Below are positions 23,166-27,348 of a DNA stretch of 64,000 bases, in pieces. The notes below the pieces were generated by a model. That model made no database searches, was not told the origin of the DNA, and was given only the letters and a program-made list of their open reading frames with translations. The stretch spans positions 100,119 through 164,118 of the IMG/VR virus record IMGVR_UViG_3300025874_000005; one strand, given 5' to 3'. Positions within the stretch are counted from its first letter, which is position 1. The number at the start of each line of letters is the position of its first letter. This DNA comes from a virus. Position numbers and translations under genes: made by a program.

Positions 23166-24806
23166 ATGAGTCAATTAAATTCTCTTTTAGAAAGCGCTAA
23201 TCCTTACAAGTCACTACAAAGTGATGCTGCAAGATTAGCCAACAAATGGAACAAGACAGGCTTGTTAGAAGGTATCGGAAACGAAACTGAGAAAAACAAT
23301 ATGTCTATGATCCTTGAAAACCAAGCTAAGCAATTAGTGATGGAAGAAAGTAACACCGGTGGTCCACTTCCTGGAGCAGGTACATTCACTCCTGGAACAG
23401 GAGCACAATGGGCAGGTGTAGCTTTACCACTAGTAAGAAAGGTATTTGGTCAAATCGCAGCGAAAGAATTCGTTTCGGTTCAACCAATGAATTTACCTTC
23501 TGGTCTAGTATTTTATCTAGATTTCCAATACGGAACTGCAGGTAAACAACCTTTTGCACAAGGCGGATCACTTTACGGTGATACTGACGGTAACTTACCA
23601 TTTGGTAATGGTGCTACAGGTGGTCTTTATGGTGCTGGTAGATTTGGTTATTCAATTAACAATACTCAATCTGCTGCTTATGCAGTAGCTTCTGGTTCTG
23701 TTGATTGGTATAGTGATTTGAATGCTGATTCTTCAGTATCTCAGTCTTATGTTGCAGGTGCTTCAGGTCAAATTGTAAAATTAACTGTCCCTTCTGCTTC
23801 ATTACCTAACTTTGATGAAAGAGCAGTAAGAGGTTTTTACCTTTCAGGTTCAGCTGCTGATTTACCAGCTTCTGCTACTCAATACCCACAATTTACTAAA
23901 ATCAATGGTGCAAACATTGAATTCTTTGTAGGTTCTGATGTTGTTGAAGCAGGTGCATTAAAAGTTGAGTATTTACTACAAACAAATGACGCTCAAAGAG
24001 GTGATTTTGAAGATGGTAATAACAACTTAAATGCTGACAACACTCCAATTTCAATTCCAGAAATCAATATTCAAATGCAGTCGGAAGCAATTGTTGCTAA
24101 GACTCGTAAATTGAAAGCTGTTTGGACTCCTGAGTTTGCTCAAGATCTTAACGCTTACCACTCTTTGGATGCTGAAGCTGAATTAACTTCAATTATGAGT
24201 GAGTATATCTCATTAGAAATTGATTTAGAAATTCTTGATATGTTGATCGAATCTGCTGCTGCTGGTACTGAGTACTGGAGTGCACAGAATAACTTAGCAT
24301 TAGCTTCAACAGGTGTTGTAGATTCAGATTTAGGTTTCTACAACTCACAAGGACAATGGTTCCAAACTTTAGGAACTAAAGTTCAGAAATTGAGTAATAT
24401 CATTCACCAGAAAACTCTAAGAGGTGGAGCTAATTTTATGGTATGTTCTCCAACAGTAGCTACAATTATCGAATCCATTCCAGGATTTGCTAGTACTTCT
24501 GATGGTGATGCTGCTAAAATGAGCTACGCATTTGGTGTACAAAAAGCAGGTACTATCAATTCAAGATACACAGTTTATAAGAATCCATACATGACTGAAA
24601 ATACCATTTTAATGGGCTTTAGAGGTGGACAATTCTTAGAAGCAGGTGCTGTATTTGCTCCATATATTCCGTTAATCATGACTCCATTAGTATACGATCC
24701 AAATACCTTTACTCCAAGAAAAGGTCTATTAACTCGTTACGCTAAGAAAGTCGTAAGACCAGAATTTTATGGTAAGATCTTCGTAGAAGGTTTAAACACT
24801 CTATAA
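23166..24806 (+). CDS. gp23: Major capsid protein (T4 gp23-like)
   Basis: LENQ, LPLVRKV, SVQPMNLPSGLVF, AKTRKLKAVWTPEFAQDL, LDAEAEL, APYIPL, PRKGLLTRY motifs. Confidence 0.96.
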   Translation: MSQLNSLLESANPYKSLQSDAARLANKWNKTGLLEGIGNETEKNNMSMILENQAKQLVMEESNTGGPLPGAGTFTPGTGAQWAGVALPLVRKVFGQIAAKEFVSVQPMNLPSGLVFYLDFQYGTAGKQPFAQGGSLYGDTDGNLPFGNGATGGLYGAGRFGYSINNTQSAAYAVASGSVDWYSDLNADSSVSQSYVAGASGQIVKLTVPSASLPNFDERAVRGFYLSGSAADLPASATQYPQFTKINGANIEFFVGSDVVEAGALKVEYLLQTNDAQRGDFEDGNNNLNADNTPISIPEINIQMQSEAIVAKTRKLKAVWTPEFAQDLNAYHSLDAEAELTSIMSEYISLEIDLEILDMLIESAAAGTEYWSAQNNLALASTGVVDSDLGFYNSQGQWFQTLGTKVQKLSNIIHQKTLRGGANFMVCSPTVATIIESIPGFASTSDGDAAKMSYAFGVQKAGTINSRYTVYKNPYMTENTILMGFRGGQFLEAGAVFAPYIPLIMTPLVYDPNTFTPRKGLLTRYAKKVVRPEFYGKIFVEGLNTL

Positions 24807-24827: not shown

Positions 24828-24858
24828 AAGAGCCCCGCGTCAGCGGGGCTTTTTTTTT
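24828..24858 (+). terminator. Intrinsic terminator after the major capsid gene
   Basis: AGCCCCGC-GTCA-GCGGGGCT followed by a T run. Confidence 0.92.
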
Positions 24859-24889
24859 GTTACTAGTGTGTACCTAGTAGGTAGTTAGT

Positions 24890-24910
24890 ATATTTATACT
24901 CGAATATTAA
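24890..24910 (+). promoter_or_regulatory. Late promoter variant with extended conserved downstream element
   Basis: ATATTTATACTCGAATATTAA; 19/21 identical to 54199-54219. Confidence 0.55.
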
Positions 24911-24927: not shown

Positions 24928-25842
24928 ATGAAAGAAACCCCTTCACAGTTACCGATTCAAAGTTATGTAATGAATTTCCCACATACTTTCTCAACAAATG
25001 ACCCTAATAACGTTTGGATGAAAGAAATGTCCGATAAAGAGTTAGCTATAAATAGACCTAAAGCATACAAACAATTTATGGATTTGTATAATTTTATGGC
25101 TGGTCAATCATTAGTACATTTGTTACCTGCAGAAGGTAATTTTCAAGATTTAATATACGTTGCTAATTTAGGGTTACAATTACCCCACATTAAAGATGAA
25201 AACCATATTTTATTATCAAATTATACTTCACCTCCAAGACAGGGTGAAGAATATGTTGGTGAAAAATTCTTTAATCAAATGGGTTATAAAACCCACATTT
25301 CTCCCCATAAATGGGAAGGGGAAGCAGATATAAAATATCTAAAAGATAATGTTTATATTGGGGGGTATGATATAAGATCAGATATTAAAACCTACCACTG
25401 GATGGAAGAAAATTTTGATATGAAAGTAATCAAAGTTAAAATGGTTGATGAATATATGTATCACTTAGACTGCAGTATCTTCCCGTTAAATACGCGATCA
25501 ACTATGGTTTGCACTGAGTTATATGATAAAACAGAGTTAGCGCAAATAAGCAAATATACAAATATAATAGATATAAATGCTGATGATTCTACTTATGGAA
25601 TGGCCAATTCTGTTAGATTAGGAAACATGATATTATGTGCCTCAAACATTTCAGAATTAAAAAAATCAGATGAATTTTATGAGGGTGAAAAACACAAAAT
25701 TGAATCATTAGAAAAAATATGTTCTGACGAGGGGATGGAACCTGTTATATTTAATTTATCTGAATATATGAAATCTGGAGCTATGTTAAGTTGTATGGTA
25801 ATGCATTTAAATAGAGTTGATCACTTTAAATCACTTCTTTAA
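24928..25842 (+). CDS. Amidinotransferase/pentein superfamily enzyme (arginine dihydrolase ArgZ N-domain / DDAH-like)
   Basis: NNVWM, DLIYVANLG, RQGEE, WEG, YHLD, LSEYMKSGAMLSC with the catalytic Cys. Confidence 0.85.
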   Translation: MKETPSQLPIQSYVMNFPHTFSTNDPNNVWMKEMSDKELAINRPKAYKQFMDLYNFMAGQSLVHLLPAEGNFQDLIYVANLGLQLPHIKDENHILLSNYTSPPRQGEEYVGEKFFNQMGYKTHISPHKWEGEADIKYLKDNVYIGGYDIRSDIKTYHWMEENFDMKVIKVKMVDEYMYHLDCSIFPLNTRSTMVCTELYDKTELAQISKYTNIIDINADDSTYGMANSVRLGNMILCASNISELKKSDEFYEGEKHKIESLEKICSDEGMEPVIFNLSEYMKSGAMLSCMVMHLNRVDHFKSLL

Positions 25843-26609
25843 TGGCTGAAAAACTAGAAGACTGGTTAAATGGAGAAGTTGCAGAATTATCTAAAAAGTC
25901 TGTAGGAGAGTTAAGTAATAATTTTTTCTTTAGAGATCCATTAAGGCCAACACATATAGATTATAAGCATTTTTATAGCCCAGCAGATGGAACTATTTTA
26001 TATCAAAAAGTAGTACAACCTGGTGATCAAGTTTTAGAAATAAAAGGTGTTGATTACACACTTCAAGATGTAATGGGAGATCGTGATTATAATCACCCTT
26101 CTTTAGTTATTGGAATATTTATGTCATTTTATGATGTACATATTAATAGAATTCCATACGGGGGTGTACTTAAATATAAACGTTTGGAGCCTATTGAATC
26201 TACTAATCAACCTATGTTAGCTGTAGAGAAGGATATATTAAATAAAGTAATTAATCCTAACAACATGGCATATTTAAAATACAATGAAAGAATGTCTAAC
26301 CAAGTGTATGTTCCCTCTTTGGATTATACATACCATTTAATACAAATTGCCGATGAAGATGTAAATGTAATAGCCCCTTTTAAACAACAAAATGATCTTT
26401 GTGTCCAAAACGAAAGATTCAGTTTAATTAGATGGGGTTCCCAAGTAGATTTAGTTCTACCTCTAGATTCTAGATATGAGTTTGAGACTGTATTAGATAA
26501 TACAATGCATGTAAATGCTGGTCTTGATAAATTAATTAAAATAAACCACACTCAAAAATGCCTTCAAAACCCCACACAGACGAAGTACACAGAAAACAAA
26601 GAACTGTGA
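25842..26609 (+). CDS. psd: Phosphatidylserine decarboxylase-family pyruvoyl enzyme
   Basis: FFFR, YSPADG, IFMSFYDVHINRIP, RWGSQVDL self-cleavage motif; no N-terminal hydrophobic anchor visible. Confidence 0.8.
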   Translation: MAEKLEDWLNGEVAELSKKSVGELSNNFFFRDPLRPTHIDYKHFYSPADGTILYQKVVQPGDQVLEIKGVDYTLQDVMGDRDYNHPSLVIGIFMSFYDVHINRIPYGGVLKYKRLEPIESTNQPMLAVEKDILNKVINPNNMAYLKYNERMSNQVYVPSLDYTYHLIQIADEDVNVIAPFKQQNDLCVQNERFSLIRWGSQVDLVLPLDSRYEFETVLDNTMHVNAGLDKLIKINHTQKCLQNPTQTKYTENKEL

Positions 26610-27292
26610 AGAACCCAATAAAATTCAAAATAAGTTTAAACGAGGAACAAAAAGAAGCCAAACAAAAAATATTAGATAACACATTAACCCTATTAGCCGG
26701 AAGAGCAGGATCTGGAAAAACACTCCTAGCATGTCAAGTTGCTTTAGATGGTCTTATACGAAGACACTATTCAAAAATAATCATTACTAGACCTACAGTT
26801 TCAAAAGAAGAAATAGGATTTTTACCTGGGGATTTAAGAGAAAAAATGGATCCTTGGATTCAACCTATTTACCAAAATATGTATGCCTTATATGATAAGG
26901 TAAAAGTAGAAAAATTAATTGAGGATGGCAAAGTAGAAATAGTTCCTTTAGCATTTATGAGAGGAAGAACCTTTTTAGACTCTTGTATTATTGTAGATGA
27001 AGCTCAGAATGTTACTCATGAACAAATGGAAATGATTTCAACCCGAATAGGATTAAGATCAAAAATGATTATTTGTGGTGATGACCACCAAGTTGATTTG
27101 AAATCAAAACGAGAATCTGGTTTTAGATTTTTATACTCAGCAGCTCGTAAAGTAAAAAATATGTGTTCTATTACTTTAATGCAAAATCATAGAGACCCAA
27201 TTGTGGATAACTTGATTGAAATTTATGAAGAAGCTGAAAGTAGGGGGATTATTAAAGGATCCTCCGGCACTAGCGGAAAAGCTAGGCGATAG
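26558..27292 (+). CDS. phoH: PhoH-family ATPase
   Basis: GRAGSGKT, TRP, IGFLPGDLREK, FMRGRTF, DEAQN, GDDHQVD, HR motifs. Confidence 0.95.
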   Translation: MPSKPHTDEVHRKQRTVKNPIKFKISLNEEQKEAKQKILDNTLTLLAGRAGSGKTLLACQVALDGLIRRHYSKIIITRPTVSKEEIGFLPGDLREKMDPWIQPIYQNMYALYDKVKVEKLIEDGKVEIVPLAFMRGRTFLDSCIIVDEAQNVTHEQMEMISTRIGLRSKMIICGDDHQVDLKSKRESGFRFLYSAARKVKNMCSITLMQNHRDPIVDNLIEIYEEAESRGIIKGSSGTSGKARR

Positions 27293-27304: not shown

Positions 27305-27336
27305 AAAAGGGGCTTAGCAATTAAGCCTCTTTTTTT
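27305..27336 (+). terminator. Intrinsic terminator after phoH
   Basis: AAAAGGGGCTTA-GCAAT-TAAGCCTCTTTT followed by further T residues. Confidence 0.8.
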
Positions 27337-27338
27337 AT

Positions 27339-27348
27339 ATATTTATAA
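27339..27348 (+). promoter_or_regulatory. Putative late promoter motif ATATTTATAA
   Basis: Exact copy directly after the terminator, 11 nt before ATG 27360. Confidence 0.7.

Follow-up and report, generated by a model that had tools for sequence, protein, structure and literature searches.

Why should a marine phage carry, between the genes that build its head, a coupled pair of genes resembling enzymes of arginine and of phospholipid metabolism? The question is raised by a stretch of 64,000 nucleotides (hereafter the window) that lies at the right-hand end of a 164-kb virus record, IMGVR_UViG_3300025874_000005, rated complete by CheckV. The first open reading frame (ORF) of the pair, ORF1, codes for a pentein-superfamily enzyme and the second, ORF2, for a soluble pyruvoyl proenzyme of the phosphatidylserine decarboxylase (PSD) family. 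The two overlap in the sequence TAATG, the ORF1 stop codon TAA (25840–25842) sharing its last base with the ORF2 start codon ATG (25842–25844). A preliminary description, made from the letters of the DNA alone, had placed this coupled pair right after the major capsid gene, and the coordinates of the ORFs and the shared base 25842 bear it out. We found that the two genes form a conserved module in distantly related phages and bacteria. The best reading of its function is that ORF1 would convert arginine to ornithine and ORF2 ornithine to putrescine, to which we assign a probability of roughly one half.

Conservation of the gene pair in phages and bacteria

Among the relatives fetched from IMG/VR together with upstream DNA, ORF1 lay directly 5' of ORF2 with the same coupling in every case (80/80). 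The proteins of the pair were 74–84% identical to those of the window in relatives whose capsid protein was down to 56–57% identity. A DNA-level search of cultured phages with the 1.7-kb region gave no match, and relatives among them were found only at the protein level. There, ORF1 had homologues in 46 records and ORF2 in 45, from the same two groups: Fletchervirus phages of Campylobacter and Bacteroides phages of the DAC/SJC group. In a large protein collection, the two genes were represented by 1283 and 1234 clusters, respectively, many of them marine and with Tara sources included.

The pair is also found in bacterial genomes. A survey using one genome per prokaryotic species identified 72 loci, 2 of which were phage-like contigs, leaving 70. 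In ~68 of the 70, the homologue of ORF1 (43–53% identity) stood immediately 3' of the homologue of ORF2 (44–53%), the reverse of the order in phages. The loci come from Actinomycetota, Verrucomicrobiota, Gammaproteobacteria, Campylobacterota (Sulfurimonadaceae), Latescibacterota, Thermodesulfobacteriota, Cryosericota, and others. The survey of gene neighborhoods that the preliminary description had proposed as a check thus finds the genes conserved as a pair, in the 80 IMG/VR loci as in nearly all the bacterial ones.

The trees of the two proteins share several well-supported clades: six Verrucomicrobiales that divide internally in the same way in both trees, Gammaproteobacteria together with Campylobacterota, two Pseudonocardiaceae, and the marine phages. 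The shared clades indicate that the two genes have been inherited together. Fletchervirus phages keep both genes though these lie 43 kb apart, and the retention of unlinked genes argues for a functional and not merely physical link. By its adjacency and its co-inheritance across distant genomes, the pair is a conserved two-gene module.

One bacterial locus stands apart in its arrangement. A Desulfobacula metagenome-assembled genome (MAG; L089:5678-8720) was the only bacterial locus seen with the phage order, the pentein gene first. It has a GT4 glycosyltransferase gene upstream and, in place of the MATE transporter gene common at this position, a CoA-ligase-like fragment downstream. In the ORF2 tree, it forms the bacterial branch nearest to the marine phage clade, with moderate support.

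Two enzymes and a proposed route to putrescine

ORF1 most resembles the arginine dihydrolases ArgZ and AgrE. Among the NCBIfam models, it matched the arginine dihydrolase domain (1.9e-24), the mycobacterial DDAH model (8.8e-24), and bifunctional ArgZ (5.6e-23), and AgrE and ArgZ were its only solved relatives by sequence (E 4e-15 with the single sequence and 1.4e-25 with the family profile). A Pfam search with ORF1 matched no family up to E 0.1, including PAD_porph (PF04371) and PF19420 (DDAH); some close relatives of ORF1 do have a precomputed match to the latter. We predicted the structure of ORF1 with AlphaFold from an alignment of 24 phage and bacterial sequences (pLDDT 77.5, pTM 0.80). 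The top Foldseek match of the model was the N-terminal domain of ArgZ (6jv0; E 1.1e-18, TM 0.76/0.84), followed by weaker matches to DDAH (9e-11), to the amidinotransferases AGAT, SxtG, and HsvA (4e-10 to 6e-8), and to AstB. The agmatine deiminase of C. jejuni (6b10) matched at E 1e-8, ten orders weaker than ArgZ.

The active site of ORF1 was mapped by counting along HMMER alignments, the 6JUY chain running two residues ahead of the native numbering. ArgZ N22, D65, N71, R90, E118, R139, H168, and D170 align with ORF1 N28, D74, N80, R104, E130, R150, H179, and D181, respectively, and AgrE C264 aligns with ORF1 C289, the predicted nucleophile. All nine mapped residues are invariant across the 24 phage and bacterial sequences. 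The preliminary description had seen an ArgZ/DDAH-like first gene with catalytic His and Cys, and His179 and Cys289 are indeed the residues that align with His168 and Cys264 of ArgZ/AgrE. In DDAH structures, the equivalents of D74, R104, and R150 presumably grip the substrate by its alpha-amino and alpha-carboxylate groups, and their retention fits a free amino acid, not agmatine, as the substrate of ORF1. According to the titles of its PDB entries, the ArgZ mutant N71S traps an intermediate, which indicates that Asn71 matters for completing the reaction. Our reading is that ORF1 would be a free-standing ArgZ-like enzyme acting on a free guanidino amino acid, L-arginine being the simplest case. 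By curated thresholds, it is not an ArgZ orthologue. The amidinotransferases, which score behind ArgZ and DDAH, are not its closest relatives, though the sequence is compatible with an amidinotransferase activity. Nor does it match the agmatine deiminase family, and a true PAD_porph protein is encoded by a separate gene in three of the bacterial loci.

ORF2 and its relatives are labeled phosphatidylserine decarboxylase in the databases. ORF2 passed the Pfam model PS_Dcarbxylase (PF02666) with 84.4 bits against a threshold of 22, covering model positions 8–193 of 198, but it missed all 15 curated NCBIfam PSD models (PRK05305 equivalogs and TIGR00163/00164), the best score being 73.5 bits against a cut-off of 183. 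Across 23 sequences ranging from phages to actinomycetes, D49 of the PADG motif, H100, and G199-S200-Q201 are invariant. The PADG motif aligns with that of E. coli PSD, which is the solved structure closest to ORF2 in sequence (profile E 1e-6) and in which the counterpart of H100 is His 144 or 147. The structural alignment of the ORF2 model with the beta chain of E. coli PSD (Z 7.0) reaches the last residues of that chain (model 198, chain 252), and the alignments with PsiD (Z 6.1) and Ao-ADC1 (9jf5, Z 5.4) stop just before the cleavage sites. That the alignments end at these sites points to Ser200 as the pyruvoyl precursor and to Gly199-Ser200 as the predicted position of self-cleavage.

A hydrophobic anchor was absent from ORF2, in which no 19-residue stretch exceeds a Kyte–Doolittle mean of 0.95, and from 37 members of its family, whose top 19-residue means (0.82–1.31) fall within the beta core. 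An anchor is present in the canonical short PSD from a pair-bearing Streptomyces (mean 1.69), directly before an FFRDP motif that this PSD shares with the ORF2 family. The pyruvoyl GS site and the missing anchor had both been pointed out in the preliminary description, and the invariance of the one and the hydropathy scan for the other agree with it. Four of five pair-bearing bacterial genomes contain a separate canonical PSD, scoring 150–207 bits as against 89–95 for the pair-type copy, which argues that the pair-type enzyme is not the lipid enzyme of those cells. These features support ORF2 as a soluble paralogue within the PSD family, separate from the housekeeping enzyme.

Some relatives of ORF2 are of unusual build. 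In a Streptomyces sp. (G004:C4:193686-195370, the genome of locus L087), two pair-type PSD-like matches stand on opposite strands, separated by ~500 bp, with a canonical PSD elsewhere in the genome. Two metagenomic proteins, P0245 (1114 aa) and P0249 (653 aa), combine a PSD-like N-terminal domain with long extensions of no clear family, apart from a faint ParB-like stretch in P0245. They were considered as fusions of decarboxylase and pentein and rejected, as the extensions are not pentein.

In bacteria, the most conserved neighbor of the pair is an exporter, mostly a MATE transporter encoded directly 3', with a fused ABC exporter in its place in some actinomycetes and a methanotroph. The Verrucomicrobiales have, further 3', genes for a periplasmic binding protein, its best matches being PotD (2e-53) and PotF (3.5e-40), and for a hybrid sensor kinase with a Cache domain. 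Across phyla, no third biosynthetic enzyme is conserved beside the pair in the bacterial loci, which would put the product at two steps' distance from a primary metabolite. This context points to a polyamine-like product rather than a membrane lipid, one that is probably small, exported, and cationic. Together with the separate canonical PSD genes, the exporters and the PotD/PotF-like protein favor the earlier view that the pair does not serve phospholipid synthesis.

The substrates, the order of the reactions, the product, and its physiological use are what we infer, and for the route from arginine through ornithine to putrescine we do so from the conserved residues. We favor this route because the ArgZ site is complete in ORF1, down to the residues that should bind the amino-acid end, because no third enzyme is needed, because PSD-fold enzymes are known that act on free amino acids (PMC12904898), and because the bacterial binding protein is of the putrescine/spermidine type. 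As we picture it, the phage would bring a self-contained two-gene cassette with which the infected cell turns arginine into a diamine. The pair would be transcribed with the PhoH gene from a promoter-like element of its own inside the structural-gene region. ORF1 would hydrolyze the guanidino group of L-arginine via a Cys289 thiouronium intermediate to give L-ornithine, two ammonia, and CO2, and ORF2 would cleave itself between Gly199 and Ser200, acquire an N-terminal pyruvoyl group, and then convert ornithine to putrescine. We found no pair-type decarboxylase in 300 other sampled Bacteroidota genomes and none in 150 other sampled Campylobacterota genomes. The hosts (Bacteroidota and Campylobacter) thus seem to lack the module, and the phage would add a host-independent supply of putrescine, which may serve DNA charge neutralization, replication, and translation. 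The cassette appears to supply the hosts with a missing capability and not to be a copy of a host gene.

Several observations weigh against this route. ORF1 is ~20% identical to ArgZ in the fold alignment and stays under the cut-offs of the ArgZ models (86.3 bits vs. 450 for the domain model, NF052232/NF052231 set; 81 vs. 1025 for bifunctional ArgZ) and of the DDAH model (NF045659; 84.1 bits vs. 300). The low identity and the missed cut-offs make ORF1 a separate family, whose reaction could be different: that of a deiminase or an amidinotransferase, or one on another guanidino substrate. The roles of D74, R104, R150, and N80 are putative, assigned by homology to DDAH and ArgZ. The model of ORF2 is fair to mediocre (pLDDT 70) and its fold matches are modest; a related fold, EIIA-Glc, scored Z 7.9, on par with the Z 7.0 of PSD, so the fold evidence backs the sequence evidence and cannot stand alone. 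The only characterized PSD-fold enzyme acting on a basic amino acid decarboxylates arginine and not ornithine, and the exporter conserved in bacteria suggests a secreted product, which is not necessarily putrescine. Finally, a true agmatine deiminase (PAD_porph) is encoded ~2 kb 3' of the pair in three Pseudonocardiaceae loci, and its proximity keeps a route via agmatine alive.

The nearest known systems resemble the pair one enzyme at a time. The N-terminal domain of ArgZ (Synechocystis Sll1336) and AgrE (Anabaena Alr4995; PDB 6JUY-6JV1 and 6LRF-6LRH) is the best match of ORF1 in both sequence and fold. Like these enzymes, ORF1 keeps the Cys, His, Asp, and Glu, the equivalent of Asn71, and the two Arg and one Asp for the amino-acid end. 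Unlike them, it stands alone (304 aa) without an ornithine cyclodeaminase domain, is paired with a decarboxylase, and belongs to a type that occurs in phages and noncyanobacterial phyla. For ORF2, the comparison is with Ao-ADC1 of Aspergillus oryzae (9JER, 9JF5) and PsiD of Psilocybe (8X4Q, 8ZIA), soluble PF02666 proteins with Gly-Ser self-cleavage and amino-acid substrates. Ao-ADC1 is an established PSD-fold arginine decarboxylase (PMC12904898) and gives a second case, beside PsiD, of the repurposing of PSD-family enzymes for amino acids that the preliminary description had invoked. The two fungal proteins are 440–480 aa long, with an extra N-terminal helical region and the motif GGST, whereas ORF2 is of the short bacterial type (255 aa) with GSQ. 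With E. coli Psd (6L06/7CNW) and the short PRK05305-type Psd, ORF2 has in common the Pfam family, the PADG Asp, the His, and the Gly-Ser. Unlike canonical PSD, it has no membrane anchor, falls under the equivalog cut-offs, and is linked to a pentein gene, and in bacteria the pair-type enzyme coexists with a real PSD.

Virus-encoded polyamine synthesis as such is already known. The phage and virus enzymes described by Li et al. 2023 (PMC9992855) are SpeD-derived pyruvoyl ornithine or arginine decarboxylases (ODC/ADC), ODC dependent on pyridoxal phosphate (PLP), and arginase. Their logic is the same, a virus-made supply of putrescine from arginine or ornithine with a pyruvoyl enzyme recruited from another function, but the pair differs from them in both steps, having a pentein in place of arginase and the PSD fold in place of the SpeD fold. 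That survey makes no mention of the PSD family, a dihydrolase, or Campylobacter phages. The genome of the window phage contains no gene for SpeE (spermidine synthase), SpeD, a CN-hydrolase, or a PLP-fold ODC/ADC. What is new is the enzyme pair, which has not been described: we found no paper on the pair or on its proposed arginine-to-putrescine route, a pelagimyophage paper does not mention these genes, and a survey of ocean auxiliary metabolic genes (AMGs) files viral psd genes under phosphatidylethanolamine synthesis (PMC11360552).

Alternative functions of the pair

The same two enzymes could work in the opposite order, ORF2 decarboxylating arginine to agmatine and ORF1 acting on agmatine, either as a deiminase whose product, N-carbamoylputrescine, is finished by a host amidohydrolase or as an "agmatine dihydrolase" giving putrescine. 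Bacteroides and Campylobacter reportedly make putrescine via agmatine and N-carbamoylputrescine, and host enzymes could thus complete the route. Agmatine deiminase shares the superfold of ORF1, three actinomycete loci carry the PAD_porph gene, and Ao-ADC1, the sole PSD-fold enzyme with a basic amino acid as its known substrate and one of the fold matches of ORF2, is an arginine decarboxylase (PMC12904898). We nevertheless regard this order as improbable, given that ORF1 is much nearer to the amino-acid-acting ArgZ/DDAH than to agmatine deiminase (E 1e-18 vs. 1e-8), lacks any Pfam match to PAD_porph, and has invariant R104, R150, and D74, by homology the holders of the alpha-carboxylate and alpha-amino groups. 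The loci with a PAD_porph gene come from one family and count as a single phylogenetic event, and ORF1 would be redundant beside a true agmatine deiminase; the window phage, for its part, has no CN-hydrolase. A product other than putrescine also seems unlikely to us. It could be an amidinotransfer product with arginine as the donor and an amine made by ORF2 as the acceptor, a decarboxylated citrulline, or the decarboxylated form of a modified arginine, which bacteria would export as a signal or antibiotic-like compound and phages would use for something other than bulk polyamine supply, such as interference with host signaling or with competitors, or as a precursor of DNA or virion modification. 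Exporters, mostly MATE and elsewhere ABC, are typical of secreted products, and the binding protein and sensor kinase of the Verrucomicrobia resemble a circuit that makes, exports, and senses a compound. The fold of ORF1 clearly matches the amidinotransferases SxtG, HsvA (a polyamine amidinotransferase), and AGAT, the curated family cut-offs are all missed widely, and the genes of phage DAC19 and Fletchervirus sit amid genes of replication and nucleotide metabolism. On the other hand, the best matches of ORF1 in sequence and fold are dihydrolases, the Asn aligned with ArgZ N71 is invariant, and the binding protein is most like PotD and PotF, which bind plain putrescine and spermidine; with no third enzyme conserved beside the pair, the product would be two steps from a primary metabolite.

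Arginine could also be broken down for its own sake, yielding two ammonia per molecule as nitrogen for nucleotides in nitrogen-poor sea water, or alkalinizing the cell, with the decarboxylase disposing of the carbon skeleton. The cyanobacterial ArgZ is said to be a nitrogen-mobilizing enzyme of an ornithine-ammonia cycle, and the phage family is abundant in marine metagenomes (more than 1200 protein clusters for each gene, Tara included). The decarboxylase is needless for the release of nitrogen, yet the two genes are kept together in the loci examined and coevolve, and the pair occurs also in phages whose hosts live in the gut, an environment not short of nitrogen; we think this use very unlikely. 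Least credible of all is that ORF2 is a true phosphatidylserine decarboxylase remodeling the membrane lipids of the host, with ORF1 functionally unrelated to it, as its database name and the passing of the Pfam PSD model would have it. ORF2 lies far under every curated PSD equivalog cut-off and has no anchor, unlike the canonical short PSD, and most of the pair-bearing bacteria tested hold a separate and far better-scoring PSD. The tight linkage of this type of ORF2 to a pentein gene and to small-molecule exporters does not suit a lipid enzyme either, and two PSD-fold enzymes, PsiD and Ao-ADC1, already work outside lipid chemistry (PMC12904898). A direct role in DNA hypermodification, an idea that came from the Fletchervirus matches and the replication-module context, was set aside since the same pair stands beside small-molecule exporters in bacteria, though the product could still feed a modification. 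A lead to bleomycin/tallysomycin in an old annotation note on phage NCTC12673 led nowhere.

With putrescine synthesis from arginine through ornithine as the preferred reading, a wider picture can be drawn more tentatively. The pair would represent a widespread two-enzyme path, consisting of an ArgZ-like dihydrolase and a PSD-fold pyruvoyl ornithine (or arginine) decarboxylase, to putrescine or a closely related compound. The product would be exported by bacteria from at least seven phyla, the PotD-like sensor circuit of the Verrucomicrobia making it a secreted polyamine signal, and at least three lineages of large myophages would have captured the path, their hosts being without it. If the chemistry holds, this would be a new route to putrescine from two enzyme folds without known cooperation. 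Its dihydrolase would be the first of ArgZ type from beyond the cyanobacteria, and the PSD fold would have departed once more from its lipid reactions. The labels "phosphatidylserine decarboxylase," "DDAH," and "amidinotransferase" would have to be replaced for hundreds of genes in phages and bacteria, and surveys of ocean viral AMGs would need correcting (PMC11360552). A host-independent polyamine supply of this kind would join the known phage repertoire (PMC9992855), and the exporters and sensors of the bacterial loci hint at polyamine signaling.

Locus anatomy and phage lineages

Around the pair, all genes of the window lie on the + strand and code for a prohead protease, a scaffold-like acidic protein, the gp23-type capsid protein, ORF1, ORF2, PhoH, and more structural proteins, with a head-tail adaptor-like gene among those 3' of PhoH (Table 1). 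Terminator-like hairpins after the capsid gene and after PhoH flank ORF1, ORF2, and PhoH and mark the three as one bracketed unit. The post-capsid hairpin is kept at the same place in almost all relatives. ORF2 of the window phage extends into PhoH (26558–26609), its last ~20 residues being unconserved and predicted to be disordered. Most relatives of ORF2 end near residue 235–247, and the tail beyond ~236 is not conserved.

Table 1. Features of the capsid–PhoH region of the window, and the agmatine deiminase genes near the pair in Pseudonocardiaceae
Feature	Coordinates	Strand	Remarks
gp23-type major capsid protein gene	23166-24806	+	
Intrinsic-terminator-like hairpin and T run, ending the gp23 transcript	24828..24860 (hairpin 24828-24853)	+	11 pairs, 7 G-C
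Promoter-like motif TAGTATATTTATAC	24886..24900	+	Core TATATTTATA at 24889-24898; ~30 nt 5' of ORF1 ATG
ORF1, pentein-superfamily enzyme, ArgZ/AgrE-dihydrolase-domain-like	24928..25842	+	304 aa
ORF2, soluble PSD-family pyruvoyl proenzyme	25842..26609	+	255 aa
PhoH-like ATPase gene	26558..27292	+	PhoH model match 2.4e-63; 52-nt overlap with the end of ORF2
Terminator-like hairpin and T run, closing the ORF1-ORF2-PhoH unit	27305..27340 (hairpin 27305-27333)	+	
Agmatine deiminase gene, Pseudonocardiaceae	L094:11657-12709		344 bits
Agmatine deiminase gene, Pseudonocardiaceae	L121:11696-12697		
Agmatine deiminase gene, Pseudonocardiaceae	L122:10971-12686		

A motif belonging to the pair had been noticed ahead of ORF1 in the preliminary description, and it is found there, with the core TATATTTATA 30 nt 5' of the start codon. 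In the spacer between the capsid gene and ORF1, most of 40 distinct relatives have the motif too, as ATATTTAT in 26 and as ATATGTAT in most of the others. The window contains six copies of TATAT[TG]TATA, all on the + strand (8141, 9062, 18081, 24889, 27338, and 54198). Five of the six are located 15–45 nt 5' of an ORF start, often straight after a terminator; the copy following that of the pair (27338) is directly 3' of the post-PhoH terminator. One copy precedes the structural block that comes next (27360), and another a baseplate-hub-like gene (54241). The exact 10-mer has 5 matches in the window against 1.5 expected, a number reached by 5 of 100 shuffles. The element may reasonably be taken for a late promoter. 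As a candidate phage promoter, it is unlike the T4 late consensus TATAAATA.

The window phage is a marine phage of Flavobacteria type. Its nearest cultured capsid, at 60% identity, is that of Flavobacterium phage immuto, for which reason a reading as a Pelagibacter phage was dropped, and a 92%-identical copy of the region is found on a contig that binning places in a Flavobacteriales MAG (L085). Phage immuto itself (immuto_2-6A, L168:6693-8616) is without the pair, and its slot between capsid and PhoH holds two unrelated genes (89 aa and 546 aa). Its having PhoH without the pair suggests that PhoH is part of the backbone and the pair an accessory cassette, occupying a slot of variable content, and its filling of the slot with other genes marks the capsid–PhoH interval as a hot spot for cargo. 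In the other phage groups, the genes lie in replication modules: in Bacteroides phage DAC19, the pair stands between primase/dUTPase genes and a homing endonuclease gene, and in Campylobacter phage NCTC12673, the pentein gene stands between those of the gp41 helicase and the gp45 clamp. The timing with DNA packaging that the preliminary description had suggested is consistent with the structural-region site in the lineage of the window phage; the contexts in DAC19 and NCTC12673 limit it to that lineage, and even the corresponding slot of immuto is occupied by other genes.

In DAC19 (L001:9782-11299) and NCTC12673 (L003:6731-8185), which belong to unrelated phage groups, the PSD-like gene is followed immediately by one for a homing endonuclease, which in NCTC12673 overlaps the end of the PSD-like gene. 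A metagenomic relative of ORF2, P0244 (737 aa), contains an intein at about residue 99, beside His100, with matches to the models of an intein N-terminal region and of intein-containing helicase and gyrase. The homing endonucleases and the intein suggest that mobile elements target the PSD-like gene as a conserved phage gene.

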